A DNA stretch of 49,795 nucleotides, taken from NCBI GenBank assembly GCA_963977795.1, contig CAXBRB010000001.1, positions 1-49,795 of the forward strand, in the 5' to 3' direction. The notes under the pieces were generated by a model. The model did not search any database and was not told where the DNA came from. It saw nothing but the letters and a program-made list of their open reading frames with translations. Below, piece after piece: positions 9,912-27,546 of this stretch; position 1 is the first letter of the stretch, and every line of letters starts with the position of its first letter. This DNA is from an uncultured Acidimicrobiaceae bacterium. Lineage in GTDB: Bacteria > Actinomycetota > Acidimicrobiia > Acidimicrobiales > RAAP-2. The position numbers were made by a program, and so were the translations under genes.

Positions 9912-9933
9912 GTCCGGCACCCCGGAGGTCTGC

Positions 9934-10887: not shown

Positions 10888-11425
10888 TGGCCAGGAGTCG
10901 CTGGACGATGTCGGCCAGCAGTGGATACGAGGCCGGCTCCTGTTGGGCGACCCGGCGCAAGCCGTCGGCCAGGAGTTCCGGGGACGGAGGGGCCGGCGCT
11001 CCGGCATCGCCGTGCAGCGCGGCCCCGGCCACGTCGGCCAGGACCGCGGCCAGCTCGACGTCCTCGAAGGTGAACGGCGCCCCGCCGGCCTTGTCGACGA
11101 CCTGGAGGACGCCGACCGACTGGTCCAGGTGGGTGCACGGGATGCTCATCACCGTGGTGGGCACGGTCGGCAGCCATCGGTGGACCCCGTCGTGGAGGCG
11201 GTCGTCCGCCGAGGGGATGGCGACGGCCATCGGCTGCCCGGACGCGAAGGCGAAGCCGGCCGCACCGTCGTCGACGGAGACCCGGCGGCCTCGGATCGAG
11301 GCCGCACCGTGCTCGGCGACGACCTCGAGCTCGCTTTCACGGGCGCAGAGGATCCACCCTGACGCCGCACCGGTCGAGGTGACCGCCGCGTCGACGACGG
11401 CTTGCAGTGCGTGCTGTACGGCCAC
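10880..11425 (-). CDS. GAF domain-containing protein
   Basis: 181 aa with a GAF-like pattern (GWILCARESELEVVAEHG...GFAFASGQPMAV...MSIPC....SVGVLQVVDK....FTFEDVELAAVLADVAG). AGGAG lies 7-8 nt upstream of the GTG at 11425. Confidence 0.7.
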   Translation of the reverse strand: MAVQHALQAVVDAAVTSTGAASGWILCARESELEVVAEHGAASIRGRRVSVDDGAAGFAFASGQPMAVAIPSADDRLHDGVHRWLPTVPTTVMSIPCTHLDQSVGVLQVVDKAGGAPFTFEDVELAAVLADVAGAALHGDAGAPAPPSPELLADGLRRVAQQEPASYPLLADIVQRLLASA

Positions 11426-11445
11426 GGCGGGCTCCTAGGTTCGGC

Positions 11446-14400
11446 TCACGACGAGGGAGAGCGTAGTGGGGGGGTCGGATCCGCGTCGGCGGCGCCCGGC
11501 GGCGTCAACGGTTGGACCGGACGGGAGTGGCCGAGGGTCACCCGCCCGAGCCGCTGGGCCGAGCGGGGGATCACCACAGGTTCGGAACGGCCGGCCAGCG
11601 CGGCGGCGAGACTCGGGTGTGTGGCGCCCAGGGCGTGCACGGCATCGCCGTCGAGGACGAGGACCGGCAGGGCCTCAGTGGCGACGAGCACTGCCGGGCT
11701 GGCCGCACCGAGGAGCCCGGAGATGCCGAAGCAGGATCCTGCGGACAGCTCGCCCACAGCGACCGGCGCACCGGAGAAGTCCGGCTCCTGGATGGTGGCG
11801 CTCCCGTCCCGGATGAAGAGGATCACGGAGCCGTCATCGTCCTGGGCCGTGCCGGCCGGGAGCTCGTCGCTCCGCATGAGGGGCAGCAGGTCCTCGATGA
11901 CGTCGTCATCGAGAGAGGCGAAGATGGGGACGGATGCGAGCGCTGCACGAGCGTCATCTCGGATGGCGGGCGAGGCCCCGATCACCGACTGCTCGGACCA
12001 CAGGGTGGCGTACAGGCCGCCCAGCGCCAGCAGCTCGTCGTGTCGGCCCTGCTCGACCAGACGGCCGTCTTCCAGCACCACGATGCGGTCGTAGTCGGCG
12101 ATGGAGGCCAGCCGGTGCGAGACGGAGATGACCGTGCGCCCGCGCCCGGCATCGGCGAGGGTGGCGCTGATCAGTCGCTCGGTCCGGGCATCGAGCGCCG
12201 AGGTCGCCTCGTCGAGGATCAGGAGGTCGGGATCGCGGAGGAGCGCCCGGGCGAGTGCCAGGCGCTGACGCTGGCCTCCCGACAGGCGGCTCCCGTGCTC
12301 ACCGACCTCCGTCGAGACGCCGTCCGGCAGCTCGGACACGAATGCCCCCAGGTCCACGGCGGCGATCACCGCCTCGACCTCGGCATCGGTGGCGTCCGGT
12401 CGGCCCATGCGGATGTTCTCGGCGATGCTGGCGTTGAAGAGGAACGAGTCCTGTGCCACCAGACCGATGCGCCGCCGCCAGGACGAGACGTCCACCGTCC
12501 CGAGGTCGACGCCGTCGACCAGGATGCTCCCCAGGTCGGGCTGGTAGAAGCGGAGGAGCAGCTGCAGGATCGATGACTTGCCGGAGCCGGTCGGTCCGAC
12601 GATGGCCACCCGCTCCCCGACGGCGACACGGAAGGAGACGCCGTCGATGGTGGTGTGTCCGGCGCCGTAGGAGAAGGAGACGTCGCGGAGCTCGATGCCC
12701 TGACGGACGCCCTCCAGCGGCGGGAGGTCGACCTCGGGTTGCTCGAGCGGGGCCTCGAGGATCTCGTCGATCCGGCTGACGGCACCGGTCGATGCCTGGA
12801 ACTGCTGCCCGATGGTGGTGAGCTCGGTCACCGGCCCCATGGCCTCTGCGCTGACGGTCACGAAGGCGACCAGTCCTCCGACGGTGAGGTGGCCGTGGAA
12901 GACCAGCCAGGAGCCGATCAGCAGGATGACCAGACGGCTGAGGATGATGATCGAGCTCACCGAGAACTGGAAGTACCCACCGAAGAGCGCCAGCCGCACC
13001 TGCCGACGCACCAGTGACGACGAGGCCTCGTGCATCCGGTGGAGCTCCCGGTCCTCGAGGCCGAAGGCGCGGATCACGGCCCGGCCGACGTACCCCTCGG
13101 AGATGATGGCCAGGAGGCCGCCGGTCTCGGACTGGACCGCCAGGCTCCGCTCCTGGGCGCCTCGGGTCATGAGCCGGTAGACGACCGCCACCACGGGAAG
13201 CGAGGCGAGCGTGATGAGCCCGAGGACCGGATCGAGGGTCAGCATCACCACGGCCGAGACAGTCAGCGAGAGGACCTGGGCCACGCCGCCGCGCAGCGCC
13301 TGGGTCAGGCCCTGCTCGACCAGCTCGACATCGGAGAAGATGCGCGACAGCACGTCTCCCTGCTCGTGCTCCCCGAACCAGCCGAACGGGAGGTGCTGCA
13401 GGCGGTCGTACATCTGCGAGCGGATCTGACGGACGACGTCGGTGCTCACCACGGCGGCGAGGTACGTGCTCCGGAGCTGGGCCGCCATGGAGACGGCGAA
13501 GATGGCCAACAGGACGCCGATGACGGCCAGGACGTGACTGAACTGCCTGCTGGGGATGGCCGAATCGATCAGGGTGCGGAAGGCGAAGGGGAATGCCGCG
13601 ATGAAGGCCAGGCCCACGAGGGTGTAGCAGAAGAGCTCGAGCTCGCGGTACCAGTGGGGCCGGAGGTACGTGGAAGCGAGGTGCAGGAGGGACCGGCCGC
13701 CGCCGGGACCGGATGAGCCGGCGAGGTGGGAGCGCCATGCCGCCTCGAGGTCGGTGATCTCCTCCTGGCTGCCTCCCTCGGTGGTCGGCGCCAGGAGGAG
13801 GTGCTCGACGGCCTGGCGTCCGAGCCGCCCGACCATGTAGCTGACGAACGAGAGCTGCAGGGCCGCCCCGAGCTCGCCGCTCGCTTCGTCCCGTGCGGGG
13901 AGATCGGCGACCGTCCGGAGGGCCTCGGTCGGATCCTCGGATCCGGCCGCCCAGAGGCCGAAGGCCTCGAGCAGCGGACCTGACGTCGGCGGGGCTCCCA
14001 GCGCCGCTCCGGCGCACAGAGCGAGCGGCCGCTCGAGCGGATCGGGAGGTGCACCGCCGGCCACCACGGTCCAGACCGAGCACGACGCCGGATCCACCAC
14101 CGAGCCGTCGACCAGGATCTCATCAGGGTGGTGGGGATCGGCCGTCGGATCGATGAGGTGCACCGTCGGGATCCGCGTCCGGAGGCCACGCCCCAGGTCG
14201 CCGAGGCGCTCGACCGCCAGCTGGGCGCGCCTCGCCACATCGGCGACGACATGGGCACCGGGGCCGTCCGGATGGAAGCGGACGACCACGAAGGGTGTGA
14301 TTGCGGCCGCCATGGGCGGCCTTCCGTCCACGGCTGCATCGATGACGACGGTGGCCGCGCCGTTCCGCACCACGTCACCTGGTGCCACCGCCACCGGTCC

Positions 14401-14616
14401 GGGGGTGGGCACCCCGTTGACGGTGGTGTGACCCGGTTCCCCCTCCTCGGTGACGGCGAGACCCGTCGGCGTTACGTCGAAGCGCAGCCCGCGGTCCGCT
14501 GCCCGGTCCTCGGTGACGATGCGGCCGTCGGCGTCGAGGTCGAGGACGAAGGACCCGTCCACGCCGGTGTCCACCGTCGTCCCGTCCCCCGCCGAGTAGT
14601 AGAGCCGGTACTGCAT
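11446..14616 (-). CDS. Multidomain ABC exporter: FHA-like N-terminus, unknown ~220-aa region, type-I exporter TMD, canonical NBD, cNMP-binding-like C-terminus
   Basis: The TMD has six hydrophobic helices. The NBD carries GPTGSGKSS, LVAQDS, LSGGQRQR, LLILDEATSALD and SVSHR. The C-terminus reads PIFASLDDDVIEDLL...GSCFGISGLLGAASPAVLVA, a degenerate phosphate-binding cassette. The N-terminus reads ...HTTVNGVPT....V.PGDVVRNG.ATVVI, which is FHA-like. The ATG at 14616 shares one nucleotide with the kinase stop (TGATG). Confidence 0.85.
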   Translation of the reverse strand: MQYRLYYSAGDGTTVDTGVDGSFVLDLDADGRIVTEDRAADRGLRFDVTPTGLAVTEEGEPGHTTVNGVPTPGPVAVAPGDVVRNGAATVVIDAAVDGRPPMAAAITPFVVVRFHPDGPGAHVVADVARRAQLAVERLGDLGRGLRTRIPTVHLIDPTADPHHPDEILVDGSVVDPASCSVWTVVAGGAPPDPLERPLALCAGAALGAPPTSGPLLEAFGLWAAGSEDPTEALRTVADLPARDEASGELGAALQLSFVSYMVGRLGRQAVEHLLLAPTTEGGSQEEITDLEAAWRSHLAGSSGPGGGRSLLHLASTYLRPHWYRELELFCYTLVGLAFIAAFPFAFRTLIDSAIPSRQFSHVLAVIGVLLAIFAVSMAAQLRSTYLAAVVSTDVVRQIRSQMYDRLQHLPFGWFGEHEQGDVLSRIFSDVELVEQGLTQALRGGVAQVLSLTVSAVVMLTLDPVLGLITLASLPVVAVVYRLMTRGAQERSLAVQSETGGLLAIISEGYVGRAVIRAFGLEDRELHRMHEASSSLVRRQVRLALFGGYFQFSVSSIIILSRLVILLIGSWLVFHGHLTVGGLVAFVTVSAEAMGPVTELTTIGQQFQASTGAVSRIDEILEAPLEQPEVDLPPLEGVRQGIELRDVSFSYGAGHTTIDGVSFRVAVGERVAIVGPTGSGKSSILQLLLRFYQPDLGSILVDGVDLGTVDVSSWRRRIGLVAQDSFLFNASIAENIRMGRPDATDAEVEAVIAAVDLGAFVSELPDGVSTEVGEHGSRLSGGQRQRLALARALLRDPDLLILDEATSALDARTERLISATLADAGRGRTVISVSHRLASIADYDRIVVLEDGRLVEQGRHDELLALGGLYATLWSEQSVIGASPAIRDDARAALASVPIFASLDDDVIEDLLPLMRSDELPAGTAQDDDGSVILFIRDGSATIQEPDFSGAPVAVGELSAGSCFGISGLLGAASPAVLVATEALPVLVLDGDAVHALGATHPSLAAALAGRSEPVVIPRSAQRLGRVTLGHSRPVQPLTPPGAADADPTPPLRSPSS

Positions 14617-15674
14617 CACGGCACCTCTGTCCGGGCGCGTCGCTCGACGGCCGGTCCGGACCGTCGGGCCCGGCCGGGACGGTCGATTCGCCCCCAGCTG
14701 TGGGACGGCGCCTGGGGGTCGGACCTGCCGCCGGGACCTGGGTGGTGCTGGCGGGAGCCCCGCTCGGTCACGGCGACCAGCTCGGGAGCTCCGTGGATCG
14801 GCACATCCGTCGCTGAGAGCCATCCGGCACCCCAGGCGTCGGTCGCCGCGCTGGCGAGGGCCAGGCCGAACGCCATCGCCGAGCTCGGGCGATCGCGGTG
14901 GTCGGTGCGCAGACCGAGCATCACGACCTCGGCAACTGCCTCGGGAAGCTCCGGGTTCTTGGTGCGCAGCGGATCCGGCTGCTCGTAGGCGTGCTGGTAC
15001 AGCAGGTCCATCGGGTCTCCGGTCTCCTGGAACGGGAGCTCGCCGCACAGGAGCTCGTAGAGGACGGTGGCGGCGGCGTAGACGTCGGCGGCCGGGGTGA
15101 TCACACCGTTCCACGTCTGCTCGGGGGCGATGTAGGCCGGAGTCCCGACGATCTCGGACGCCTCCCCGCCTGACGCTGTCGATGTCTCCGTGGTGGTGGC
15201 GATGCCGAAGTCCGTGACCTTGAGGGTGCCGTGCTGGTTGAACAGGAGGTTCTCCGGCTTGATGTCCCGATGGAGGATGCCCCGTCCGTGCGCAGCGTCG
15301 AGCCCGGTCAGGCAGGCGAGGAGCAGCGCCACCGACGTGCGGGCCGTCAGCCCGGCATCGGCAAACCGGCTCCACAGGGAGCCGCCGGCCAGGTTCTCCA
15401 TGAGGAGGAGGAAGACGCCGTCGTGCTCGACGAAGTCGTAGACGGGGACGATGTGCGGATGGTCCACTGAGGCCAGCAGGGTCGCCTCCGCCACGAAGCG
15501 CTCCCGTGCGGCGTCGTCGGCGGCGAAGGCCCTCGGGAGGAACTTCACCGCGACCTCGCGTCCGAGCCGGTTGTGGCGGGCGGCCAGGACGACGCCGAGC
15601 CCCCCACGGCCGATCTCGCCGGTCACCTCGTAGCCCGGCAGCGCCGCGGCGACCAGGGGCCGGTCGAGCATCAC
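14616..15674 (-). CDS. Hanks-type Ser/Thr protein kinase, cytoplasmic, no TM segment
   Basis: GEIGRGGLGVV (P-loop), VAVK, HRDIKPENLL, DFG and GTPAYIAPE. GGGAGG lies 5 nt upstream of the start. The C-terminal ~75 aa are low-complexity. Confidence 0.9.
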   Translation of the reverse strand: MMLDRPLVAAALPGYEVTGEIGRGGLGVVLAARHNRLGREVAVKFLPRAFAADDAARERFVAEATLLASVDHPHIVPVYDFVEHDGVFLLLMENLAGGSLWSRFADAGLTARTSVALLLACLTGLDAAHGRGILHRDIKPENLLFNQHGTLKVTDFGIATTTETSTASGGEASEIVGTPAYIAPEQTWNGVITPAADVYAAATVLYELLCGELPFQETGDPMDLLYQHAYEQPDPLRTKNPELPEAVAEVVMLGLRTDHRDRPSSAMAFGLALASAATDAWGAGWLSATDVPIHGAPELVAVTERGSRQHHPGPGGRSDPQAPSHSWGRIDRPGRARRSGPAVERRARTEVP

Positions 15675-15858: not shown

Positions 15859-18336
15859 TCAGGAAGCCGAGCGGAGGCACATGGTCATCGGTTCGGGGAG
15901 GTGCTCGAAGAGCTCCCAGCCGGTCCACGGCGGGATGCGGAACCCCTGCTCGTCAGCGGTGAGCACCGTCTCGAACATCCGCACGGCGCCGGAGAGCCAG
16001 AACAGCTCGGAGCCAGCGTCCCCGCGGAGCACGGCGAGGAGCGCCTGGCCCGAGAGGTGCACGACGAAGCTGGCATCGGGGTGGGGCGTGGGACGAAGGA
16101 CGAGCTCGGCCGGTCGGAAGTCGATCGAATAGGTGAACCGGCGTCCACCCCCGACGTGGACGGTCGCCTGCCAGACCACCCCCCACTGCTTCCACGGGGT
16201 CAGGTCCATAGAGGACACGTAGGCGGAGAAGCGGGTGGTCAGGAACGTGTCGAGGAGGGTGGCGAGCTCGGCGATCTCGCCCTCGTCGACGCCGGGGAGC
16301 GTCGAGGTGTCGACAGGTTCGAACTCCTCGCTCGATCCGTTCCCGCCGCCGTCGACGACGACCGGCGAGGATGCCCGGCGGACATCGACCTGTCGTCCGT
16401 CGATGTGCACCGAGTCCCCGGGTCGGAGGACGCCGGCCCGTCCGTGGCCGAGCCGGCGTTCGAGCAGCCGGGCGATCCGGTCGTCACGGAGCGGGGCCAC
16501 GTACCGGTTGGCCCAGGCGGCCTCGGCGCAGTAGGCCAGGCCCCAGAACGACGGGAAGACGAAGCCTGGATCGGTGGCGCAGGCCGCCTCGAGCCAGTCC
16601 ACGACCGACGCCCGCTCGTCATGGCTGACGCCGAGTCCCCGCTGGGTGCTCCACAGGGCCGTGCCCGGTTGGAAGTGGGCCGCCACGCAGCCCATCGGCC
16701 CGAGCTCGTCGCGCAGCCGGGCCCCGACCCCCGGTCGCACCAGGGAGTCCGACACGTGCCAGTACGAGCCGTTGCCGCTCCGGATCACGACGCCGAACTC
16801 GTCCAGCTCGGCATCGGAGGGAGTGGCGGTGATCTCGACGTCGTCGTCCTTCCACCTGTCCCAGGGAGCGAGCGGATGGACGTCGGTGAATCCGAGTCGG
16901 TGGACGGTTGTCAGCAGGTAGTCGTCGTGCGGGGCGAGCACCGTCGCCGACCGTGGAAGCGAGGTGAGCGAGTCGGGGTGGAAGTGATCGAGATGCTGGT
17001 GCGTCAGGACGATGTGGGTGATCTCGGCAAGTTCGCCGTGCGCGAACGTCCGACGCGGCCGGAACTCGACCGTCCCCGACCCGATGACCGGAGCGAACAC
17101 CGGGTCGATGATGATCCGGCGTCGCTCGGTATCGACCAGGGTCGTGGCGTGGCCCGCCGCCGTCACTGTCAGGGACCCCGACCGCACGGCGGCCGGCAGC
17201 GTGCCGACCGACTCCCCGTGGGCGATCATCCGAGCCACCGTTTCGGGAGCATGCTGTTCGGCGATGGAGGCGGCGACGGCTGCTGCCGAGCGTCGGCCTG
17301 AGTCGCCGGAGCGCAACCGGATGGCCTCCACGAGCGCCCCGGGATCGGGCCCGGTGGCGTCGAGGATGGTGCAGGCTCCGGCCGCGGCGACCGCATCGGA
17401 CAGGAGCTGCTGGAACGGGCTGCACGGCAGGAGGACGAGGGGGACCCCCGAGGAGAGCGCACGGAGGACGGGGACGGGGTCGCCGTGGGTGACGACCACG
17501 TCCGGCGCCTCCTGCACGGCCGTCATCTCCGTGCCGTCCTCCTGGCGCGAGGCGAGCGAGGTGCGCTCGAGGGTGGTCGTGGACAGGCGGATCCCGTAGC
17601 CGCCGGCGTGCAGGGCCCCGACGGTGCGGGCGACCATCGGTGTCAGGTCGGTGGAGGTCAGCCCGAGATCGACCAGGACGGTCGGCGGGGTCCGTCCGTC
17701 CTCCGGTGCAGGAGCGCGGCGCTCGGGCTCAGGGGTGCAGCGCATCGGGATCGTCACCCCGGGAGCTTCGACGCCGTTGCGCAGCAGACGGGGGCGGATG
17801 TCGACGTAGGGGTGCGCGTAGAGCCCTGCGTGGGGTTCGGGCTCCAGGCCCCAGGTCCTCCACAGCGGAGCGACGGCGTCGGATGCTGCTGCCGTCCACT
17901 CGGTGGGGAGCACGGGCCCGCAGCACACCGACCGGACGCCGGCCAGACGGGCGGCCAGCGGAGCGGCCAGGGCGCACGGGTCGTGGGCCACCAGCTCGAA
18001 CCCCCCGTCGGCCACGAGCCGGATCAGGTCGGCTGCAGATGCCGGTGCCATGACCCCGCCGAAGAGGTGGGCCATCGAGAAGGCGCCGCGCTCGTTCCGG
18101 TCCAGCGACGCCAGGTCCGGATGGTTCCGGAGGTACTGCTGCCGGGCCTGCTCGGCGGGCCAGCCCACAGCGGTCCAGGATCCTGCCCCGGCGTCTGTCG
18201 GAGTGTCCGGCGGTCCGGCGAACTCGACGGCGTGGCCGAGCTCGGCGAATGCACCCGCCAGGGTGTCGAGAGGCCGCAGCAGCTCGGGCCCGCCTGCGGA
18301 GACGAAGAGGACGCGCACGGTGGGCTGATGGTACAC
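15859..18336 (-). CDS. Fusion protein: GT1 (MGT-type) glycosyltransferase-like N-terminal half, MBL-fold metallo-hydrolase domain, C-terminal SCP2-like region
   Basis: The N-terminus VRVLFVSAGG...LGH.V and the overall layout resemble GT-B glycosyltransferases. The donor motif is divergent (THGDPVPVLRALSSGVPLVLLPCSPFQQ). The MBL motif is VLTHQHLDHFHPDSL. The C-terminal ~180 aa (LSGQALLAVLRGDAGSELFWLSGAVRM) look SCP2-like. The start may instead be the GTG at 18318. Confidence 0.75.
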   Translation of the reverse strand: MYHQPTVRVLFVSAGGPELLRPLDTLAGAFAELGHAVEFAGPPDTPTDAGAGSWTAVGWPAEQARQQYLRNHPDLASLDRNERGAFSMAHLFGGVMAPASAADLIRLVADGGFELVAHDPCALAAPLAARLAGVRSVCCGPVLPTEWTAAASDAVAPLWRTWGLEPEPHAGLYAHPYVDIRPRLLRNGVEAPGVTIPMRCTPEPERRAPAPEDGRTPPTVLVDLGLTSTDLTPMVARTVGALHAGGYGIRLSTTTLERTSLASRQEDGTEMTAVQEAPDVVVTHGDPVPVLRALSSGVPLVLLPCSPFQQLLSDAVAAAGACTILDATGPDPGALVEAIRLRSGDSGRRSAAAVAASIAEQHAPETVARMIAHGESVGTLPAAVRSGSLTVTAAGHATTLVDTERRRIIIDPVFAPVIGSGTVEFRPRRTFAHGELAEITHIVLTHQHLDHFHPDSLTSLPRSATVLAPHDDYLLTTVHRLGFTDVHPLAPWDRWKDDDVEITATPSDAELDEFGVVIRSGNGSYWHVSDSLVRPGVGARLRDELGPMGCVAAHFQPGTALWSTQRGLGVSHDERASVVDWLEAACATDPGFVFPSFWGLAYCAEAAWANRYVAPLRDDRIARLLERRLGHGRAGVLRPGDSVHIDGRQVDVRRASSPVVVDGGGNGSSEEFEPVDTSTLPGVDEGEIAELATLLDTFLTTRFSAYVSSMDLTPWKQWGVVWQATVHVGGGRRFTYSIDFRPAELVLRPTPHPDASFVVHLSGQALLAVLRGDAGSELFWLSGAVRMFETVLTADEQGFRIPPWTGWELFEHLPEPMTMCLRSAS

Positions 18337-18344
18337 AGGGAGGC

Positions 18345-20327
18345 GTGCACGTGGCTCTGCTGTTCCCCCCGGTCGTGGACCCCCGGGGGCCTCATCTGGC
18401 GATCCCGTCCCTAGCGGCGCACCTGCGGGCGTCAGGGGTGCGCACCACGGTTCGGGACCTGAACGTCGAGGGCCTGTGGGCGTTGACCGAACCCGAGGCG
18501 CTGGAGGACCGGGTCGACGAGCGCACGGCGGCGGCCGTGGCCCGGGCCCGGTCGGTGCTCCGGGACCCCGAAGCGTTCTACGACCCCGATCAGCTGGCGG
18601 CGGCCCGGGCGGCCCTGGCGGCGGCGTGCACTGCCTGGAGCGACCCGGCCGGACGCGTCCGCTATCAGGCGATGGGTGCCGCCTATGACGTGGACGGCTG
18701 CGATCCGACCCGTCTGGCCGACCTGATCGCCGTCACCGCCGACCGATCCACCAATCTGTTCGACGGGCTCTGGCGTTCGGAGCTCCTCCCAGCCCTCGCC
18801 GAGGACCGGCCCGATGTCATCGGCATCTCCATCCTCAACCGTCAGCAGATCATCCCCGGTCTCCACCTCGCCCGCATGCTCCACGAGGCCGGGCACGTGG
18901 TGGCCATCGGCGGCACGGTGTTCGCCAAGTTCGCGCCCGAGCTCATGCGACGGCCGGCGTTCTTCTCGACGTTCTGCCGCGCCGTGGTCCCCTACGAGGG
19001 GGAGCACGCCCTCCTGGAACTCGTCCGGTCCGTGTCCGCCGGCGGGACCGGCGAAGGCGTCGCCAACACGCTGGTGCTCGGTCCGTCGGGAGCCGTCGTC
19101 GCCGGCCCGACCATGGTCGAAGAGGTCCCGCACCTGCCCACGCCCGACTTCGACGGCCTGCCCCTCGACCGGTACCTTGCGCCACACCTCGTGCTGCCGA
19201 TCCTGACGGGCAAGGGGTGCTACTTCAACCGGTGCAAGTTCTGCGACATCCCCGCCATCAACCGGATCTCCCCCCGGGCTTACCGGATGCGCCCGGCGGA
19301 TCAGGTGGCCGCGGATGTCGTCGCCCTCCATCGACGCCACGGCGCCCGGCACTTCGAGATCACCGACGAGACCCTCTCGCCGGCGTTCCTCCGCAAGCTC
19401 GGGCGCGCCCTTGCGGAGATCGACGGGGGTCCTGAGGTGCGAGCCCGATTCGTCGGCTACGCCCGATTCGAGCCCGGCTTCACCCCGGAGGCCTGCGCTG
19501 AGCTCTACGCCATGGGCGTGCGGAAGCTGTACTTCGGGTTGGAGTCCGGATCCCAGGTGATGCTCGACCGGATGGACAAGGGGATCCGCCTTCCCGTCGT
19601 GCGCACCGTGCTCCGCAACTGCGTCGAGGCAGGCATCGCCGTGCACCTGTTCTCGATCATCGGCTTCCCGGAGGAGACCGAGGAGCTGGCGGCCGAGACA
19701 GTCGGCTTCCTGCTCGAGGAGTCGGACACGCTCGCCGACCCCCGCAACACCTTCGACGTCCACCCGTTCGGCCTCGACCTGCGCACCGACTACGCCGACC
19801 AGGCTGACGAGTTCGGTGTGGACATCGACCGGGTGGTCCTCCGCACCCAGGACTTCCCGATCAGCGTCTCACGGTGGGTCAACCGCCGGGGGATGGATCC
19901 TGCCCAGGTCGCCGATGTGCTCGACCGGGCCGTGGGCTCGCTGCGGGAACGGTACCGGTCCTCGGGGCGGAACTTCCCGGACCAGCAGTTCCCCGGGTTC
20001 GAGGAATACGCCGTGCTCTACCTGGACCGCTACGAGGACGTCCCGTTCCTCCACCGGCTCAGCCTTCCTGAGCCCGACGACCCCCAGCGCTACTCCATCG
20101 AGTGGGCGGAGGACATCGAGCTCTCGTCGGAAGGTGCAGACGCCTGGAGCGTGCAGACGCGGTTCGGATCGTGCTCGGTCGGGGCCGACGAGCTGCGCGC
20201 CCTGGCGCCGTCCCGGCCGGGACAGCCGGTGGCCGGCCACCGCGCGGCCTGGGCAGATTCCGGTGTGGCGATGGCCACCGTGGACGGGCTCATCGCCATC
20301 CGGGCGCTCCTCCTCCGTCCGGCCTGA
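18345..20327 (+). CDS. B12-binding domain radical SAM enzyme (class B rSAM)
   Basis: The N-terminal half looks like a B12-binding domain (VALLFPP...PSLAAHLRASG, DVIGISIL....I.....LARMLHEAGH.VAIGG). The cluster motif GKGCYFNRCKFCDIP lies at nt 19218-19244. The GTG at 18345 is preceded by AGGGAGG at 18337-18343. Confidence 0.85.
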   Translation: MHVALLFPPVVDPRGPHLAIPSLAAHLRASGVRTTVRDLNVEGLWALTEPEALEDRVDERTAAAVARARSVLRDPEAFYDPDQLAAARAALAAACTAWSDPAGRVRYQAMGAAYDVDGCDPTRLADLIAVTADRSTNLFDGLWRSELLPALAEDRPDVIGISILNRQQIIPGLHLARMLHEAGHVVAIGGTVFAKFAPELMRRPAFFSTFCRAVVPYEGEHALLELVRSVSAGGTGEGVANTLVLGPSGAVVAGPTMVEEVPHLPTPDFDGLPLDRYLAPHLVLPILTGKGCYFNRCKFCDIPAINRISPRAYRMRPADQVAADVVALHRRHGARHFEITDETLSPAFLRKLGRALAEIDGGPEVRARFVGYARFEPGFTPEACAELYAMGVRKLYFGLESGSQVMLDRMDKGIRLPVVRTVLRNCVEAGIAVHLFSIIGFPEETEELAAETVGFLLEESDTLADPRNTFDVHPFGLDLRTDYADQADEFGVDIDRVVLRTQDFPISVSRWVNRRGMDPAQVADVLDRAVGSLRERYRSSGRNFPDQQFPGFEEYAVLYLDRYEDVPFLHRLSLPEPDDPQRYSIEWAEDIELSSEGADAWSVQTRFGSCSVGADELRALAPSRPGQPVAGHRAAWADSGVAMATVDGLIAIRALLLRPA

Positions 20328-20482: not shown

Positions 20483-20740
20483 ATGGCGGAGGAGCACGAG
20501 GGTGGTGTCGTCCTGCGGGGCGACGACGGATCGCTGTACTTCATCCGGGAGTCGACGCTTGCGGCCTGCAAGGCCGAGGGCGAGTTCGTTGACCGGGTGA
20601 ACGAGATGGTGGAGGGGAGCGAGGTCGAGGGGTACGCCCTCACGACGACGTCGCTGAGCACGGTGACCACGGTGTCCTCGACGTCGACGTCGACGCCGAC
20701 GGTGAAGCCGGCGGGCACCACCATGATGTGCCCCTGGTGA
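20483..20740 (+). CDS. RiPP precursor peptide A1 (85 aa): ~52-aa leader plus Ser/Thr-rich core ending MMCPW
   Basis: MAEEHEGGVVLRGDDGSLYFIRESTLAACKAEGEFVDRVNEMVEGSEVEGYA / LTTTSLSTVTTVSSTSTSTPTVKPAGTTMMCPW. 18 of the last 33 residues are Ser or Thr. RBS GGAGAGGAG is present. The gene is adjacent to the modifying enzymes and has a paralogue 422 nt downstream. Confidence 0.8.
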   Translation: MAEEHEGGVVLRGDDGSLYFIRESTLAACKAEGEFVDRVNEMVEGSEVEGYALTTTSLSTVTTVSSTSTSTPTVKPAGTTMMCPW

Positions 20741-20904: not shown

Positions 20905-21156
20905 ATGTCGGAGGAGCAAGAGGGTGGAGTCGTCCTGCGGGGCGACGACGGTTCGCTGTACTTCATCCGGGAGTCGACGCTTGCGGCCTGCAAGGCCGAG
21001 GGCGAGTACGTCGACCGGGTGAACGAGATGGTGGAGGGGAGCGAGGTCGAGGGGTACGCCTTGACGACGACGTCGCTGAGCACGGTGACCACGGTGTCGA
21101 CGATTACTCCGACGTCGGTGAAGACGTCCATGACCACGGTCATGTGCCCCTGGTGA
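20905..21156 (+). CDS. RiPP precursor peptide A2 (83 aa), paralogue of A1
   Basis: MSEEQEGGVVLRGDDGSLYFIRESTLAACKAEGEYVDRVNEMVEGSEVEGYA / LTTTSLSTVTTVSTITPTSVKTSMTTVMCPW. The leader is 49/52 identical to A1. 17 of the last 31 residues are Ser or Thr. Confidence 0.8.
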   Translation: MSEEQEGGVVLRGDDGSLYFIRESTLAACKAEGEYVDRVNEMVEGSEVEGYALTTTSLSTVTTVSTITPTSVKTSMTTVMCPW

Positions 21157-21231: not shown

Positions 21232-22356
21232 TCAGGCGCCCTGGTCCCCTTCGGCGCCAGGGATGGCGTCGCGCAGGCGGGCTGTCGAGATGCGCAGCTG
21301 ATCGGCCATCAGCGCATCGATCTCGAAGCGGTGCTGCATCTGGAGCTTCTCGACCAGCACCGAGTCGATGATGAAGGAGAGCAGCGCCTCGTCGCTGATC
21401 CCCTCGGTCCGGCACCAGGACCGGAGGGCGTCGTCGTCCTCGAGGGCGTGGGTGGACCGGAACCGGGCCAGCTCATCGGCGAGCTCCTCGTTGGACACCG
21501 GGAGCGGCAGGGCGGACGCCCGCTGCCGGGCCAGGAGGCGCAGCAGGATCTTCTTGCGCATGACCGGCACCGTGTCGGTGCCCCGGAGCGGGGCCGGGTC
21601 GTCGAGCCGTCCCCCGGCCCGGGCGAGGTCGACCTCCACCTCCAGGTCGTGGAGGAAGACGGTGCGCTCGACATCGACGGGTCGTGCGGGTCGCGCCAGC
21701 TGGTCGACCGGCGTGGCGGCGACGAGCTCGAGCACCGACAGCGCGTCCTGCTCCTTCAGCCCCGGTCCATGTTCGGCGGCGAACCGCCGGAGCCGTTCGG
21801 CGGCTTCCGGCGGGAGGCCGGCTGCCTCGATGGCGGTCACCAGGTGCCGGTCGGGGAACGCAATCGATCGGGCGGCATCGACGAGGGCGTCACGTTCCCG
21901 GTCGTCGATCGCCCCGGAAGCATGGGCGCCAGTGAAGAGGTGCCGGAGGTCGACGAGGGCGTGGGACAGGGAGCGGTAGCCGGCGTCGGCATCGGCGTGG
22001 GCCACGGCCACTTCGTCGTCGTCCTCGATGGCACCGGTGCGGAACCACTCGAACACGGTCCCGTGTCCGATCATCCCGAACTGGTGGAGCTCGGCGGCGC
22101 GGAGCGCTCCCATGCTCGCCGCGCCCAGGACGGGGACGCCCGTGCTGATCGCCTGCAGGATCTCCTTGTGCCAGACCGACGGGACGAGCTCGAAGAACCC
22201 GTCGATGATCACCAGCGCAGCGGGCTCGTCGTACAGGGCCCGCAGGACGTCACCCTGGGACACCGGCGGATGGAGGACGGCATCCGGGACGATGGATCGG
22301 GCGACCGGGGCGGCGAGCGAGGGCCCGAGGAACACGTGGACACGTCCGACGCTCAC
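21232..22356 (-). CDS. tfuA: TfuA-like protein (YcaO partner for thioamidation)
   Basis: The N-terminus VHVFLGPSL.......PDAVLHPPVSQGDVLRAL...ALVIIDGFF....SVWHKEIL.A...GV.VLGAASMGALRAAEL is characteristic of TfuA. The GTG start overlaps the ycaO stop (GTGA). Confidence 0.85.
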   Translation of the reverse strand: MSVGRVHVFLGPSLAAPVARSIVPDAVLHPPVSQGDVLRALYDEPAALVIIDGFFELVPSVWHKEILQAISTGVPVLGAASMGALRAAELHQFGMIGHGTVFEWFRTGAIEDDDEVAVAHADADAGYRSLSHALVDLRHLFTGAHASGAIDDRERDALVDAARSIAFPDRHLVTAIEAAGLPPEAAERLRRFAAEHGPGLKEQDALSVLELVAATPVDQLARPARPVDVERTVFLHDLEVEVDLARAGGRLDDPAPLRGTDTVPVMRKKILLRLLARQRASALPLPVSNEELADELARFRSTHALEDDDALRSWCRTEGISDEALLSFIIDSVLVEKLQMQHRFEIDALMADQLRISTARLRDAIPGAEGDQGA

Positions 22357-23630
22357 GGGGTGCCACCGCGGGCAGTGGACCGGGCCCGCTGACCCGGCCG
22401 GTACGAGGGGGTGGAGCTGGCGCCCTCGAGGCCGGGGACCACGACCCGGACCACATGGACGGGGAGGTCGTCCATGGTGAGGTCGACCACCACCGGCTCG
22501 TCGACTCCGACGGCGGCGAGCGCCGCGAGGACGGCGTCCAGGTCGTCGTCGACGGTGGCCCCGGTGACCGTAGGTGCATCGGTGAACCGGCGCCTCCCGG
22601 TCTGCTCCGCCAAGGCCTGGAAGTGGCGCAGGGCGTCCCCGTCCTGGGTGGCCCGGACCCGGGCCCGGGTCAGGTCGTCCCGGGCACCGGAGATCGCAGT
22701 GAGCCGGGACTGGGCTGCCTCGGTCAGGGCGCGGACCAGCGCGATGCCACGGTCCGGATGGGTCCCTGCCCCGTAGGCCGCCCCGATCGGGCGCATGTGG
22801 GGATCAGCGGACCGGTCGGAGATGACCACCTGGAAGGTGGGGATCGGAATGTCCCTCGTCACCTCCCAGCAGATCACGGCGATGTCGGCGTCGGCATACC
22901 GGGCCAGGAGGCTACGGGCGACGGGGTGGTCCACGCTCTCGAGGTCCACCCGGCGGGCCCCGGGACCGGCGGGGTCGGCGGCGTGGAGCGCACCGGCATC
23001 GCGTTCGATCAGCTCGCAGAGCGCGTGGAGCGCCGCCTCGGCACGGGTGTTGCCGGAGGCCAGGCCGCTGGAGTTGCGCGAGAAGCACCCGCTCCCCGGG
23101 TGCAGCGGCAGACGGGCATCGGTGTGGACCAGCTCGTAGGGGACCCAGACGGGCCTCCCGGTGCGCAGCTGCTGGCCCTGAGCCCAGGGGATGACGAGGT
23201 CGGCGTGCCAACGGGTGTCGGCGCTCAGTTGCAGCCGGCTCGGGTCCATGGGGGCCGGGCCGGTGTCGTCCGTCCCGTGGCGGAGCTCGGACCACGAAGC
23301 GTGGCGGACGGTCACGGCGTGCTGCTCGCCGTGCCAGAGCTCCACCGCCTCCATGAGGGCGGAGGCCCGGGCGTCGTCGAGCGTGACCCCCTTCCCCTGG
23401 GACACGGCGAGGGATCGGCTGTTGGGCCGCACGGCCATCACGACTGGGATGCCGATGCGGTCCAGTCCGGTCACCGGGGCCAGGCGGGTGATGCCGAACC
23501 GGTCCCAGAGGATCGGCCGGAGGAGATCGACCGTCTGGGCGGCACCCCGGCTCCGCTGGGAGCCGTCGCACTTGGGCGTGACCGGACCGAGCCAGGCACG
23601 CAGTGCCGACCCCGGCGCAGCGGAGGTCAC
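22353..23630 (-). CDS. ycaO: YcaO domain protein
   Basis: Motifs RIGIPVVMAVRPNSRSLAVSQGKG and LMEAVELWHGE, plus the ATP/Mg motif SSGLASGNTRAEAALHALCELIERDA. The GTG at 23630 overlaps the stop of the upstream SpaB_C gene (GTGA). The 23768 start would overlap that gene by 142 nt. Confidence 0.9.
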   Translation of the reverse strand: MTSAAPGSALRAWLGPVTPKCDGSQRSRGAAQTVDLLRPILWDRFGITRLAPVTGLDRIGIPVVMAVRPNSRSLAVSQGKGVTLDDARASALMEAVELWHGEQHAVTVRHASWSELRHGTDDTGPAPMDPSRLQLSADTRWHADLVIPWAQGQQLRTGRPVWVPYELVHTDARLPLHPGSGCFSRNSSGLASGNTRAEAALHALCELIERDAGALHAADPAGPGARRVDLESVDHPVARSLLARYADADIAVICWEVTRDIPIPTFQVVISDRSADPHMRPIGAAYGAGTHPDRGIALVRALTEAAQSRLTAISGARDDLTRARVRATQDGDALRHFQALAEQTGRRRFTDAPTVTGATVDDDLDAVLAALAAVGVDEPVVVDLTMDDLPVHVVRVVVPGLEGASSTPSYRPGQRARSTARGGTP

Positions 23631-24361
23631 GGCCGCACGGCCATGGAGCGCACGGTGGCCACGAAGAGGTCGTCCCAGTAGGGCAGTCCCATCTGATTGG
23701 ACAGGAAGAAGGCAGCCGACCGACACCAGGCCCGGGGGCCGGCGGTCAGCACCCCGGCGTCGGCGCACGCCCGCAGCCGAACCCCGATCTCACGGATCTC
23801 GGGGTGGTCGCCGTCGTCGGACCGGTCCGGAAGATGCCACGGTCGATCCCGCCCCGACGCCTCGGGACCGTCGGGCAGCGCGGCGAGGATCTGGGACCAC
23901 ACGTCCCATCGCTCGTCGTCGTCGGCGAGCGCGCCATCCAGGAGGGCGCCCAACGCACCCCGCCACAGGACAGCACGGTGCTCCGGCGCCGCGTCCTCAG
24001 CCAGCACGGCGACGGCGGCCCGGGCGTGCGCGTCGAGGAGCCCGTGAGCGAGCTCCATCCCCACGCTCCCGCCGAACTTGTGCTCCTCGGCCTCGTACGT
24101 GGTGAGGCGGAAGCTGCGGACCTGGTTGCGGGCCTCTGCCTCGGCCAGCCAGGGCACCAGCCTGGCCACCAGCGAAGCGCCGTCATCGGCCGTCTCGAAC
24201 CGCAGCCGCACCCCGGGCGGCTTGCGGACGAACCAGAACCGACGGAGACCACCCTGGGTCCCGAGTCCGGAGATCTCGTCCCGGAGCTCCGCCCACGGGA
24301 AGCAGATGGGCTCCACGCCCTGCTGGGCGAAGACTGCGCAGCTGATCTGGGTCCACGTCAC
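23627..24361 (-). CDS. Lantibiotic dehydratase C-terminal (SpaB_C / thiopeptide-type elimination) domain protein
   Basis: 244 aa. RRFWFVRKPPGVRLRFE resembles the FF.RY.dP.pHLRLR signature of the elimination domain, and EEHKFGG is also present. The start overlaps the upstream stop by 4 nt. Confidence 0.75.
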   Translation of the reverse strand: MTWTQISCAVFAQQGVEPICFPWAELRDEISGLGTQGGLRRFWFVRKPPGVRLRFETADDGASLVARLVPWLAEAEARNQVRSFRLTTYEAEEHKFGGSVGMELAHGLLDAHARAAVAVLAEDAAPEHRAVLWRGALGALLDGALADDDERWDVWSQILAALPDGPEASGRDRPWHLPDRSDDGDHPEIREIGVRLRACADAGVLTAGPRAWCRSAAFFLSNQMGLPYWDDLFVATVRSMAVRP

Positions 24362-26085
24362 GGACGTTCCCTCCAGTACGACGGGTCGTGCCAGATGGCC
24401 CCGATCTCGGCAACGTACCGGCGACCGCTCCCGTCGGGAACGCCGGAGGGGGGCACCTCGCTGATCACGAGGCGGGCCGTCCCCGGGGGGACCCCGTTGA
24501 GCGCGGCACGGACGGCCAGCGGCGAGGACGTCCGCACGGGCAGCATCGGCCCATGGGGATGAGGGTCCCAGCGCACGTGGACGGCATCTGGCCAGCGGTT
24601 CTCACCGACGAGAGACTGCCACAGGAGGTACTGGGCTGCGCCGGTGGCCGTGAGCAGGTCGTCGAGTCGGTCCCCGTCGACTGTCCACCGCTCGGGGGAG
24701 AGGATGGCGCCACCGGGGAGGGTGAGCCGTGGCAGGTGCTTCCAGGTGGACCGCTCGCGCGGGAGTGCGGGGAACCCGAAGCCGGGGAGCTCCCACCCGA
24801 GTGACGACGCCGTGAGGGCCAGCAGACGGGAGAGGGGGTCCCTCGTCCCGATGGCGGCCGTGGAGTCGTAGGCCAGCACGGCCCGCACCCCGTCCTCCAC
24901 GAGGAACGGGGGATCCACGGCGACCGAGGAGAGGCCGGCGGCATCGAGGACCCGATCGGTCAGCGGAGCGACGGGCTCGCTGGTCTGCGGGCGGAGGGGA
25001 TCAGCACCCACGAGGCCGACCACCTCCAGGGGCCACGAGCGGTAGAGGTCCCGCACGGCCCGGGCGACCGGTGTGCGGGTGGCCAGGACCCCGGGATGGG
25101 GCCGGGATCCCCCGATCCACACGCCGGCGTCCGAGGGGGTGCAGACCACGGTGCCTGCCGGTCCGCCCCGGAAGGTCGGCTCGATGGCCACGGTCATGGA
25201 GGGTGCGGCGGCGTGCGGGCCGATCTCGTCCGTCCACTGTGCGATGGCCCGGTCGACCGCTGCAGCGGGGATCGGGCGGAGGCCGAAGACGCCCCGGGTG
25301 GTGTCGGGCTCGGCCGGCTGTGGCGGATAGAGGGCACCGTCGGCGATCATGTCGATCGTGGCGGCCCGGAACTGCTCGGCCCACCCGCCCCAGAAGCGGT
25401 GCTGCTCCTCGATGGCCAGGCCGATCTCCTGGCGGAGCCCGGTGCTCCACGTGAACCGGCACCCCGGAGCCGACCGGTCGATCGACCAGTCGTCCGCTCC
25501 TGGACCGACGACGCCGTCATGGGCCCAGCCGCCGAACGGGGTTGCCCGGCCGGCGGCGCGCAGGAGGAAGCGGGTCGCCGTGTCCTCGATCTTCGTGGTC
25601 CGTGCCCGGCCGTCGTCACCGTGCTCCAACAGCCGGGCCCAGTCGCGCCCGGCGCCCGGCGATGCAGCCTGCAGTGCCGTGCGGAACCGCTCGTCGGCCC
25701 CCAGCGCGTGCAGCCGGGAGCGCTGACGGTCCAGCTCGTGCTGGTAGGCCTCGTCAAAATCGGCCGTCAGGTCGGCCAGGCGGTTCCGCCGCCTTCGGTC
25801 TTCCTCGGCCGTCGCTGGGAGGTCGGTGCCGGCGGGGAGCGGCTGGCGGCCTCGGAAGGCGGTGCGGCGGGCGTCAAGGAGGGCCCGTCGGGTGGTCCGG
25901 TCGGAGGTGCCGGGGATGACCTCGCCCAGGGAGTCGACGACGGCGCCGCGGGCGGCATCCACGGCGTGGCGCAGCTGGCAGATGGCCGCTCCAGCACTGC
26001 GGAGTACCGGCGCCTCGAAGTCCACGATCTCGTCGAGCGCCCATGCGGCGACCCGACCGCTGGCGAAGGGCAGGACCTTGGGCAC
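24358..26085 (-). CDS. Lantibiotic dehydratase N-terminal (LanB glutamylation-type) domain protein, compact (575 aa)
   Basis: The RFLLRAAGRATPFGGWA motif (R..TPFG..A) and the overall layout fit the LanB N-terminal domain. I chose the GTG at 26085 because the longer ORF extension is Arg/Pro-rich and antisense to a well-supported MBL gene. Confidence 0.75.
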   Translation of the reverse strand: MPKVLPFASGRVAAWALDEIVDFEAPVLRSAGAAICQLRHAVDAARGAVVDSLGEVIPGTSDRTTRRALLDARRTAFRGRQPLPAGTDLPATAEEDRRRRNRLADLTADFDEAYQHELDRQRSRLHALGADERFRTALQAASPGAGRDWARLLEHGDDGRARTTKIEDTATRFLLRAAGRATPFGGWAHDGVVGPGADDWSIDRSAPGCRFTWSTGLRQEIGLAIEEQHRFWGGWAEQFRAATIDMIADGALYPPQPAEPDTTRGVFGLRPIPAAAVDRAIAQWTDEIGPHAAAPSMTVAIEPTFRGGPAGTVVCTPSDAGVWIGGSRPHPGVLATRTPVARAVRDLYRSWPLEVVGLVGADPLRPQTSEPVAPLTDRVLDAAGLSSVAVDPPFLVEDGVRAVLAYDSTAAIGTRDPLSRLLALTASSLGWELPGFGFPALPRERSTWKHLPRLTLPGGAILSPERWTVDGDRLDDLLTATGAAQYLLWQSLVGENRWPDAVHVRWDPHPHGPMLPVRTSSPLAVRAALNGVPPGTARLVISEVPPSGVPDGSGRRYVAEIGAIWHDPSYWRERP

Positions 26086-26094
26086 GGGTCCATA

Positions 26095-27546
26095 ATGACT
26101 GATGTGCGTCTGCAGCCGGATGTCGAACTCGTGGTGTCGATTGACGACGCAACGCCGTTCGGCTCGCCGATCGGTGCCCGACCCGAGCAGACCGTCCGGG
26201 AGGCGCTCGGGCCCATCGTCCGCCTCGTCGAGCGAGGGGGCCCCGATGCGGTCAGCCGGAGGAGCCGGGCCGCCCTCGTCGAGGCGGCAGGCCAGGAGGC
26301 GTTCCGGGCGATCGCTGCGCCGTCGGGCGGGGCCTGGGACGTCCGGGAGGCGTTCCGCTTCCCCGATCCGCTGCTGGCACGGCACGGAGCCCTCGATCTG
26401 GTCCGGGCCGGCACGAGCCTGCGGATCGGTGTCGAGCCCGGGCGGTGGGACCGTCTCCACGCCGCGCTGGCCCGTCCAGACATCTCCTCGCCTCTCGGGA
26501 AGGTGCTGTGGGAGCACGATCTTGTCGATGACGGGGAGAGCGAGACGGACCGGATGGACGCCGACCTGACCTTCGTCGGGCACAACACCGTGGTCGTCCG
26601 GGGCCCGCGGGCTTCGGTGATGGTCGACCCGTACTTCCGCCCAGCGGAGGCACGGTGGCCGACGGGCTACCAGCCGCTCGGTCCCGGTCAGCTCGGAGAC
26701 GTAGACGCCGTGCTCATCACCCACTCGCACCCTGACCACTTCGACCCGGCCAGCCTCCTGCGGATCGATCCGGACACGCGTGTGGTGGTCCCGGTGCTCG
26801 AGCGGGAGACCGTGCTGGCGGTCGATCTGGTCCGCCGCCTCTGGGAGCTGGGCTTCGCCGACGTGGTGGCGCTGGGATGGTGGCAGTCGATCACCGTGGG
26901 CGACCTCGAGATCACGGCGCTCCCCTTCTACGGGGAGCAGCCCACCGACGGGCCGGTGCTCCACCCCGAGATCAGGAACGCCGGCAACACCTATGTGGTG
27001 CGGACCCCGGGGTGGTCCGCCGCCTTCCTCGCCGATTCGGGTCGGGACCATCTCGGCGACGTCCGCGGCGTGGCCGACCGGTGGCACGCAGAGCATGGTC
27101 CTGTCGACGTCGTCTTCGGGGGGTATCGGGGCTGGTTCTCGTACCCGGCGGCGTTGGTGACCTCCTCGGTCGCCCGGTACCTCCCCTTCGTGCCCCCGGA
27201 GCAGTGGCAGGTGCGCCAGCAGCTCATGAACGGGCCGTCCGAGCTGATCGATGCCGCCGAGCGGTTCGGCGCCCGGTGGGTGGTCCCCTACGCAGACGGC
27301 GGGGCACCTTGGTTCTGGGAGATCGGCCTGGGGCCACGGCTCGATGGAGACCCGAGGGAGTCGCCGTCGTTCGACCCCTTCCCGGAACGTGTCGTCGAGG
27401 CCGCCGCCTCCCGCATGGTCATGGGGGGCGGGTTCCCGATGACGGGCTCGGTGGATGTCGTGGTGCTCCGGCCGGGCGACGGCGTCACCGGGCTGCCTGG
27501 GGCGATGACGACGGTGCGGCTGGACGGGCACGCCTGGCCCTGGTGA
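26095..27546 (+). CDS. MBL-fold metallo-hydrolase family protein with a ~165-aa N-terminal extension
   Basis: VLITHSHPDHFDPASL (HxHxDH) follows LTFVGHNTVVV. It resembles the MBL portion of the 15859-18336 fusion protein. ATG at 26095. Confidence 0.8.
   Translation: MTDVRLQPDVELVVSIDDATPFGSPIGARPEQTVREALGPIVRLVERGGPDAVSRRSRAALVEAAGQEAFRAIAAPSGGAWDVREAFRFPDPLLARHGALDLVRAGTSLRIGVEPGRWDRLHAALARPDISSPLGKVLWEHDLVDDGESETDRMDADLTFVGHNTVVVRGPRASVMVDPYFRPAEARWPTGYQPLGPGQLGDVDAVLITHSHPDHFDPASLLRIDPDTRVVVPVLERETVLAVDLVRRLWELGFADVVALGWWQSITVGDLEITALPFYGEQPTDGPVLHPEIRNAGNTYVVRTPGWSAAFLADSGRDHLGDVRGVADRWHAEHGPVDVVFGGYRGWFSYPAALVTSSVARYLPFVPPEQWQVRQQLMNGPSELIDAAERFGARWVVPYADGGAPWFWEIGLGPRLDGDPRESPSFDPFPERVVEAAASRMVMGGGFPMTGSVDVVVLRPGDGVTGLPGAMTTVRLDGHAWPW

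Follow-up and report, generated by a model that had tools for sequence, protein, structure and literature searches.

Two MBL-fold proteins in a LanB-type gene cluster

We analysed a 49,795-nucleotide stretch of DNA from an uncultured Acidimicrobiaceae bacterium (contig CAXBRB010000001.1; the whole stretch, ~72% G+C, is hereafter called the window), which encodes two metallo-beta-lactamase (MBL)-fold proteins within a cluster for a ribosomally synthesized and post-translationally modified peptide (RiPP). An earlier note on this DNA had suggested that these two proteins supply chemistry missing from the cluster; both score above the Pfam Lactamase_B_2 threshold, and the motif quoted for each was found. 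Genes were called from third-position GC bias and Pfam matches. The first protein, MBL1, stands alone (26095..27546, plus strand, 483 amino acids (aa)), carries ITHSHPDHFDPASL and matches Lactamase_B_2 (E 3.8e-13, 49.9 bits against a cutoff of 27) as well as Lactamase_B_3 and Lactamase_B. Its start codon is supported because homologues align from residue 1-5, and the third-position GC frame plot changes frame at ~26100, near this start. The second, MBL2, is part of an 825-aa fusion open reading frame (ORF; 15859..18336, minus strand) that carries LTHQHLDHFHPDSL and of which residues 406-548 match Lactamase_B_2 (E 2.3e-10, 40.9 bits, cutoff 27).

The fusion protein comprises three parts, all on the minus strand: a domain resembling family 1 glycosyltransferases (GT1-like; ~17212-18336), with a match to EryCIII-like_C at 23.5 bits, below cutoff, and to SnogD at E 2.4e-4; the MBL2 domain (~16357-17175), with H446, H448, D450, H451 and an invariant Glu and Asp; and a family-specific C-terminal alpha/beta domain (~15859-16314). 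The donor-binding motifs of the GT1-like domain read HGDPV and SPFQ in the window, whereas the closest fusion homologue, P0123, has the usual HGGAS and GGDQ; judged by these letters, the window domain may be catalytically degenerate or may use an unusual donor.

Each MBL gene is arranged head-to-head with a biosynthetic gene, and the predicted starts confirm both pairs as the earlier note had described them. MBL1 (start 26095) diverges from a gene for a 575-aa, divergent LanB N-terminal (glutamylation-type) protein, LanB-N (24358..26085, minus strand, start 26085), with the starts 9 bp apart; the same two genes, again 9 bp apart, appear in an independent gene call from an ENA metagenome contig. 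LanB-N matches Pfam Lant_dehydr_N (E 2.5e-10) across the first 59 profile positions only and has no PDB sequence match. The fusion gene (start 18336) faces a B12-binding radical SAM (B12-rSAM) gene (18249..20327, plus strand, likely start near 18345; Pfam Radical_SAM and B12-binding), whose rSAM_ocin_1-like NCBIfam match falls below cutoff. Between these pairs lie two precursor peptide genes on the plus strand, of 85 aa (20483..20740, ending ...AGTTMMCPW) and 83 aa (20905..21156, ending ...MTTVMCPW), followed on the minus strand by TfuA (21232..22356; Pfam E 3e-44), whose C-terminus bears a ~110-aa domain that we call X (21259-21591), YcaO (22353..23768; Pfam E 1.3e-81) and an elimination-type LanB C-terminal protein, LanB-C (23627..24361; Lant_dehydr_C E 4.7e-15; NCBIfam TIGR03891 67.9 bits, above cutoff). 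Immediately 3' of the fusion gene is a Ser/Thr protein kinase (14616..15674, minus strand; Pkinase E 7e-49), and a subtilase of the Peptidase_S8 family, a candidate leader protease, is encoded at 9934..11007 (minus strand; E 2.8e-30). In agreement with the earlier note, LanC is missing from the 5-35 kb part of the window in which ORFs were scanned.

Two further genes lie on the other side of MBL1. One, just downstream, encodes a PLP-dependent decarboxylase-like protein (28188-29537, plus strand). The other is a third MBL-fold gene (33297-34568, plus strand), which is alkylsulfatase-like (Lactamase_B and Alkyl_sulf_dimr), adjoins a GH1 glycosidase and a BKACE gene and is probably outside the cluster.

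Two old families with a shared ligand pattern

Aligned pairwise, as the earlier note had advised, the two MBL domains share 30% identity over 146 aa (E 1e-13), and the two family profiles align with an hhalign probability of 99.7% (E 1.2e-26, 250 columns). On this sequence comparison MBL1 and MBL2 are homologous, and the suspected paralogy holds as an ancient divergence between two old, separate families and not as a recent duplication.

MBL1 consists of an N-terminal alpha/beta domain (~aa 1-150) followed by the MBL domain. In a set of 5.8 billion proteins we found over 500 full-length relatives, ~500 aa long and with 45-59% identity, which belong to Actinomadura, Embleya, Nocardia, Streptomyces, Acidimicrobiales and Pyrinomonadaceae; their annotations go no further than 'MBL fold metallo-hydrolase' or 'UlaG', and NCBIfam has no model specific to the family. 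With the fusion protein as a word-index query we retrieved only itself and one near-identical fragment, and with the MBL2 module seven matches, while an exhaustive HMMER search with fusion residues 375-825 gave 811 relatives, mostly stand-alone proteins of ~450 aa. These begin directly at the first MBL strand, share the C-terminal domain and have no N-terminal domain of the type seen in CmlA, an enzyme described below. By eye the C-terminal domain had seemed SCP2- or alkylsulfatase-like, a likeness that neither Pfam nor Foldseek supported; in the structural model of MBL2 this domain has no Foldseek partner.

Across a 23-member alignment of the MBL1 family, invariant residues include H210, H212, D214, H215, E281, H290 and D314; across 25 MBL2 family sequences they are H22, D37, H72, H74, D76, H77, E139 and D156 (module numbering). 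Invariant His residues are limited to H122, H163, H210, H212, H215 and H290 in MBL1 and to H22, H72, H74 and H77 in MBL2. At motif 3 both families have an invariant Glu, and no late (motif-5) His is conserved in either alignment. The shared ligand pattern is HxHxDH, then a Glu at the position of CmlA E377, then an Asp at that of the bridging Asp of CmlA, D403. The E281 column of MBL1 coincides with the Glu in the FLGE motif of CmlA, and D314 with D403; the residue numbering of CmlA is fixed by PDB entry 5kil, whose label reads 'E377D mutant' and in which precisely that Glu is replaced.

The best sequence matches of both families are CmlA, from the chloramphenicol pathway (PDB 4jo0, 5kik, 5kil), and FrsH, from the FR900359 pathway (PDB 8a90), which are non-heme diiron beta-hydroxylases with an MBL fold. 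As a single sequence MBL1 matched CmlA at E 4e-10, FrsH at 1e-8 and the hydrolase NAPE-PLD at 3e-5, and its family profile separated them further (1.2e-20, 1e-18 and, for NAPE-PLD as best hydrolase, 1.5e-10). The MBL2 family profile gave 1.7e-19 for FrsH, 2.8e-16 for CmlA and 3.7e-15 for NAPE-PLD. AlphaFold2 (AF2) models of MBL1, built on the family alignment (predicted local distance difference test score, pLDDT, 86; predicted template modelling score 0.89), and of MBL2 (pLDDT 83) both matched MBL structures in Foldseek with probability 1.0. CmlA and FrsH were the top matches of MBL1 (E ~1e-18, query-normalised template modelling score, TMq, 0.58), aligning over ~590 columns and both domains with a root-mean-square deviation of ~9-10, the N-terminal domain being without detectable sequence similarity; matches to the MBL domain only, such as NAPE-PLD and UlaG, reached TMq ~0.40 and E ~1e-11. 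The structure prediction that the earlier note had called for thus bore out an MBL fold for both proteins and placed CmlA and FrsH at the top for MBL1, with CmlA level with NAPE-PLD for MBL2.

That note had thought of a zinc site serving as a cyclase or a hydrolase, which becomes the weaker reading with Glu in place of the motif-3 His, no motif-5 His and CmlA/FrsH as nearest relatives. A metallo-hydrolase or phosphodiesterase of the NAPE-PLD/UlaG type would cleave an ester or phosphoester intermediate (for example a glutamyl ester or phospho-Ser/Thr), shorten the peptide or have as its target the tRNA that LanB uses as co-substrate. We regard such a role as unlikely: although NAPE-PLD, UlaG and UPF0173 are the next-best PDB relatives and NAPE-PLD ties with CmlA for the fold of MBL2, both families have the altered motif 3 and lack the motif-5 His; although the window has a Ser/Thr kinase beside the fusion gene, the related loci inspected show no conservation of kinases. 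Nostoc loci without a LanB elimination domain always carry MBL2, as hydrolysis of an intermediate would have it, while trimming has an S8 protease already in the cluster, and RNase Z, RNase J and beta-CASP structures match far more weakly. We accordingly set aside RNase Z- or RNase J-like tRNA processing tied to the use of tRNA by LanB on the weakness of these structural matches, and the leader hydrolase or peptidase role raised in the earlier note on account of the ligand pattern and of the S8 protease, a dedicated enzyme for leader removal.

MBL1 co-occurs with LanB across phyla

A one-genome-per-species scan provided 27 full-length MBL1 loci and, as controls, 43 loci with unrelated MBLs. 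A further 80 control loci with weakly matching MBLs came from a metagenome scan seeded with the MBL2 alignment; their MBLs belong to a different family, scoring 39-169 bits with the fam2 hidden Markov model (HMM) against >450 for true MBL2 members. With HMMs iterated from the cluster proteins we counted features within a 10 kb radius at 37 MBL1 loci. LanB-N was present at 33/37 (26 of them within 3 kb), the X domain at 30/37, LanB-C at 26/37 and MBL2 at 17/37, with YcaO and B12-rSAM each at 13/37, Amidohydro_2 at 7/37, Cupin_8 at 5/37 and TauD at 4/37. None of the 123 control loci (43 + 80) had LanB-N, LanB-C or the X domain. Four of the 37 were without LanB-N; three of these are contig-edge loci or short contigs, and the fourth (L030) has LanB-C, YcaO and the X domain.

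The MBL1 loci span actinomycetes, Acidimicrobiales, Nostoc, proteobacteria, Myxococcales and Acidobacteria. Six homologue loci were inspected individually, and in all of them LanB genes adjoin MBL1, with accessories that vary among YcaO/TfuA, B12-rSAM, Amidohydro_2, TauD, Cupin_8/JmjC, Trp halogenase and, once, LanC (L003; absent from the other related loci). Three loci seeded from MBL2 also hold MBL1 and LanB, and one of these related loci, L078, mirrors most of the window core with YcaO, TfuA, a precursor, MBL2, LanB-C, a LanB-N-like gene, rSAM and MBL1. Gene fusions join the same partners. Three loci (L026 9866-12259, L028 9956-12331, L079 2446-4698) encode proteins of ~750-800 aa that unite MBL1 with the LanB elimination domain; MBL1 is also fused to a TauD dioxygenase in an 841-aa protein (P0031) and to the X domain in L018. 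GT-MBL2 fusions are encoded by the window and by L077, and MBL2-X fusions by Nostoc, L026 and L079. The co-occurrence, a check that the earlier note had named, together with the MBL1-LanB_C fusions, makes the MBL proteins an integral part of the RiPP cluster.

The X domain itself is helical, ~110 aa long, and is recognised by VMRKKILLRLLARQRA...F..W...LRISTAR; it occurs once or twice in the 30 loci that have it. It is found at the C-terminus of TfuA, Amidohydro_2, MBL2 or MBL1, at the N-terminus of LanB_C, or alone, and in other loci lies at L002:9622-9954, L019:7301-7633, L018:11498-11830, L011:4027-4356, L016:7351-7632 and L017:36-368. Through this shared domain the iterated 'TfuA' HMM reached other proteins. 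X has no Pfam relative and no PDB sequence relative. Such shuffling among partners would be expected of a module for recognising leader peptides, a role that we predict from this distribution.

Frequent fusion to other enzymes and to X, along with a GT-like domain in the window that looks degenerate, could also be expected if the MBL proteins were non-catalytic scaffolds or peptide-binding subunits that merely organise a LanB complex. We judge this very unlikely, since in both families every metal-binding position stays unchanged from phylum to phylum, which is unexpected of a purely structural protein.

A compact form of the cluster is found in Nostoc, where a precursor, two Trp halogenases, MBL2-X, LanB-N and MBL1 occupy L019 1-11500 with a CLC chloride channel gene nearby; L020, L022-L024, L032 and L033 are similar. 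No LanB elimination domain was found within 10 kb in these compact clusters, each of which has MBL2.

Signalling domains were also seen near the cluster. In the window they lie within 8925-15674 (minus strand) and comprise the Ser/Thr kinase, cNMP-binding ABC proteins, among them an ABC transporter with a cNMP-binding domain (11446..14625, minus strand; Pfam), and a GAF protein (10880..11425, minus strand); related loci have FHA, GAF and guanylate-cyclase domains (L001 3268-4224; L077 12141-15956). To judge from this clustering, export or production may be under phospho- or cyclic-nucleotide control. An S8 fragment is present in L077 as well.

Precursors share a nearly invariant C-terminal tail

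The window precursors are members of a family, matched by no NCBIfam model, in which both the leader, GG.VLRG.DGSLYFIR.E.L.ACK, and the C-terminus are conserved. Two unrelated leader types precede the same tail: actinomycetes have the GG.VLRG.DGSLYFIR type, whereas Nostoc, proteobacteria, Myxococcales and Acidobacteria have leaders of double-glycine type. The C-terminal motif was found in 23/37 family loci and, as one spurious match, in the 43 controls. Counted over 25 distinct precursor sequences, position 0 of the tail is Thr in 24 and Ser in 1, position 1 is Ile (14), Val (10) or Met (1), positions 2 and 3 are Met and Cys in all 25, position 4 is Pro (17) or Cys (8), and position 5 is Trp (21) or Gly (4); in 18/25 the precursor ends directly after the Trp. 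The presence of Trp halogenases in some clusters (L006, L019) and of a Trp prenyltransferase in another (L078) implies that the tail is part of the product. Of the core residues to which the earlier note had drawn attention, the one conserved Cys stands, while the many dehydratable Ser/Thr lie in a long stretch peculiar to the window precursors, and just one Thr is conserved family-wide beside the Cys.

Tail variants are accompanied by different accessory genes. Precursors ending in ...MCPWFC (L002, L004/L007, L013) always occur with a long Amidohydro_2 protein bearing the X domain, and those ending in ...MCCW (L006, L010) with a short Amidohydro_2 protein, Cupin_8 and TauD, so that the two look like distinct sub-classes of cluster. 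L001 has Amidohydro_2, Cupin_8 and TauD, and its precursor was not found.

A Thr and a Cys at i and i+3 invite the proposal that the MBL proteins are non-canonical lanthionine cyclases, in which LanB would make dehydrobutyrine (Dhb) from the invariant Thr and the metal of MBL1, MBL2 or both would take the part of LanC by activating the thiol of the Cys three positions further on for Michael addition. This spacing is invariant in 25/25 distinct precursors, neither the window nor any related locus but one has LanC, and MBL1 adjoins LanB genes or is fused to LanB. We nevertheless hold a cyclase role to be improbable, as the fold and ligands are unlike those of LanC with its Cys-Cys-His zinc site, the carboxylate-rich HxHxDH-E-D site and the homology to CmlA/FrsH point to redox chemistry, the one exceptional locus (L003) holds LanC as well as MBL1, and a single ring would not require two different MBL families.

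A predicted role in O2-dependent peptide tailoring

Collectively, these findings establish a conserved pathway core made up of the precursor tail, LanB-N, MBL1 and the X domain; LanB-C usually accompanies LanB-N, and MBL2 is often part of the core as well. For the two MBL proteins we lean towards a role as peptide-tailoring, O2-dependent metallo-oxygenases of the CmlA/FrsH type, which would act on the conserved tail, in preference to one as zinc hydrolases. We favour this because the nearest characterised relatives are diiron beta-hydroxylases, because the ligands are HxHxDH-Glu-Asp without the late His of zinc hydrolases, because frequent companions are other O2-dependent tailoring enzymes (TauD, Cupin_8/JmjC, Trp halogenases) and because all host taxa are aerobes. 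With an S8 protease in the window, and LanC present together with MBL1 in one locus, the MBL proteins are not obviously needed for proteolysis or cyclisation. CmlA and FrsH beta-hydroxylate carrier-tethered amino acids, and in CmlA the residue E377 gates O2 activation. PqqB and ETHE1 likewise use MBL folds for iron/O2 chemistry, PqqB inside a RiPP pathway.

Under this proposal a dinuclear, carboxylate-rich site, most likely of iron, would activate O2, and the substrate would be the C-terminal hexapeptide of the precursor, Thr-(Ile/Val)-Met-Cys-(Pro/Cys)-Trp. The reaction would be an O2-dependent hydroxylation or other oxidation of a tail residue, the candidate oxidised atoms being a beta-carbon, as in the reactions of CmlA and FrsH, or the sulfur of Cys or Met. 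Oxidation could precede LanB, giving a hydroxyl that LanB activates and eliminates, or could follow it, with the Dhb/Cys product as substrate. The GT-like domain that the window fusion carries along with MBL2 might bind this site too, or decorate it.

Several points weigh on the other side. The Glu of the 'GME' motif of CmlA and FrsH, probably CmlA E430 and possibly a ligand, has as its counterpart an Arg that is invariant in the MBL1 family and a Gln that is nearly so in the MBL2 family; if this Glu is a ligand, the sites of MBL1 and MBL2 differ from that of CmlA. Some zinc MBL sulfatases, too, have Glu at motif 3. In Foldseek searches with the MBL2 model the hydrolase NAPE-PLD (E 1.7e-14) was level with CmlA (5e-14), and the case for an oxygenase is less strong with MBL2 than with MBL1. 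The cluster has no evident reductase partner, sequence alone does not reveal the metal, oxygenase function is a prediction, and the invariant Thr-x-x-Cys in loci without LanC is a real unmet need for a cyclase.

Should the oxygenase prediction hold, two sister families of a LanB pathway would bring the class of diiron MBL-fold beta-hydroxylases into RiPP biosynthesis; to our knowledge, such enzymes are so far known solely as trans-acting tailoring enzymes of non-ribosomal peptide synthetases (NRPS). It would offer one possible answer to how LanB clusters without LanC complete their chemistry, and the combination of precursor, LanB and MBL1 with or without MBL2 provides a handle on an apparently widespread natural-product family that reaches from Streptomyces-like actinomycetes to Nostoc and myxobacteria. 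A bolder proposal, which we advance tentatively and with more doubt than confidence, is that MBL1 and MBL2 would be the first CmlA-type, MBL-fold dinuclear-iron oxygenases to act on ribosomal peptides and that, with a divergent LanB and a leader-binding X domain, they would define a possibly new multi-phylum RiPP class built on an invariant tail, in which oxidation and LanB chemistry would be coupled. The coupling might run by beta-hydroxylation, which would supply LanB with a non-Ser/Thr hydroxyl for elimination, or by oxidative chemistry at the Cys or Met sulfur leading to a new crosslink.

Comparison with known systems

CmlA and FrsH resemble the window proteins most, as the best sequence matches of both families and in keeping HxHxDH, Glu and Asp; however, identity is just 17-22%, and their substrates are tethered to an NRPS carrier, whereas here the substrate is presumed to be a ribosomal peptide. 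No NRPS gene was found among the called or scanned genes of the window or of L001-L006, L019 and L077-L079, where the neighbours are RiPP genes. MBL1 differs from CmlA/FrsH by a conserved inserted loop (QPTD..LHPE.RN.GNTY) and a YADGGAPW motif, and MBL2 departs from their architecture, having no N-terminal domain and a C-terminal domain of its own.

The remaining MBL-fold systems are more distant. PqqB, reported to act as an iron-dependent hydroxylase, is likewise an MBL fold in a RiPP pathway, although it partners the rSAM enzyme PqqE and no LanB, and it was among neither the PDB sequence matches nor the top 50 Foldseek matches of MBL1 or MBL2. The hydrolases NAPE-PLD, UlaG and UPF0173 belong to the same Pfam families (Lactamase_B_2/_3) and have His at motifs 3 and 5, in contrast to the Glu at motif 3 and the absence of a conserved late His here. 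Neither MBL protein matches LANC_like (PF05147); both are MBL folds, unrelated to the alpha,alpha-toroid of LanC. MBL1 and MBL2 are therefore not LanC, not PqqB-like at a detectable level and not canonical di-zinc hydrolases, a group that takes in beta-lactamases, glyoxalase II and NAPE-PLD.

At the level of the cluster, the closest parallels are the split-LanB and YcaO-TfuA clusters that make thiopeptides and thioamidated peptides. The window likewise has split LanB N- and C-terminal proteins, YcaO-TfuA and a B12-rSAM, and its LanB-C matches the thiopeptide-type model TIGR03891. The precursor differs, with a single conserved Cys and the T-I/V-M-C-P/C-W tail, and YcaO/TfuA and rSAM are each confined to 13 of the 37 loci, whereas the common core of this family is LanB-N, MBL1 and the X domain.

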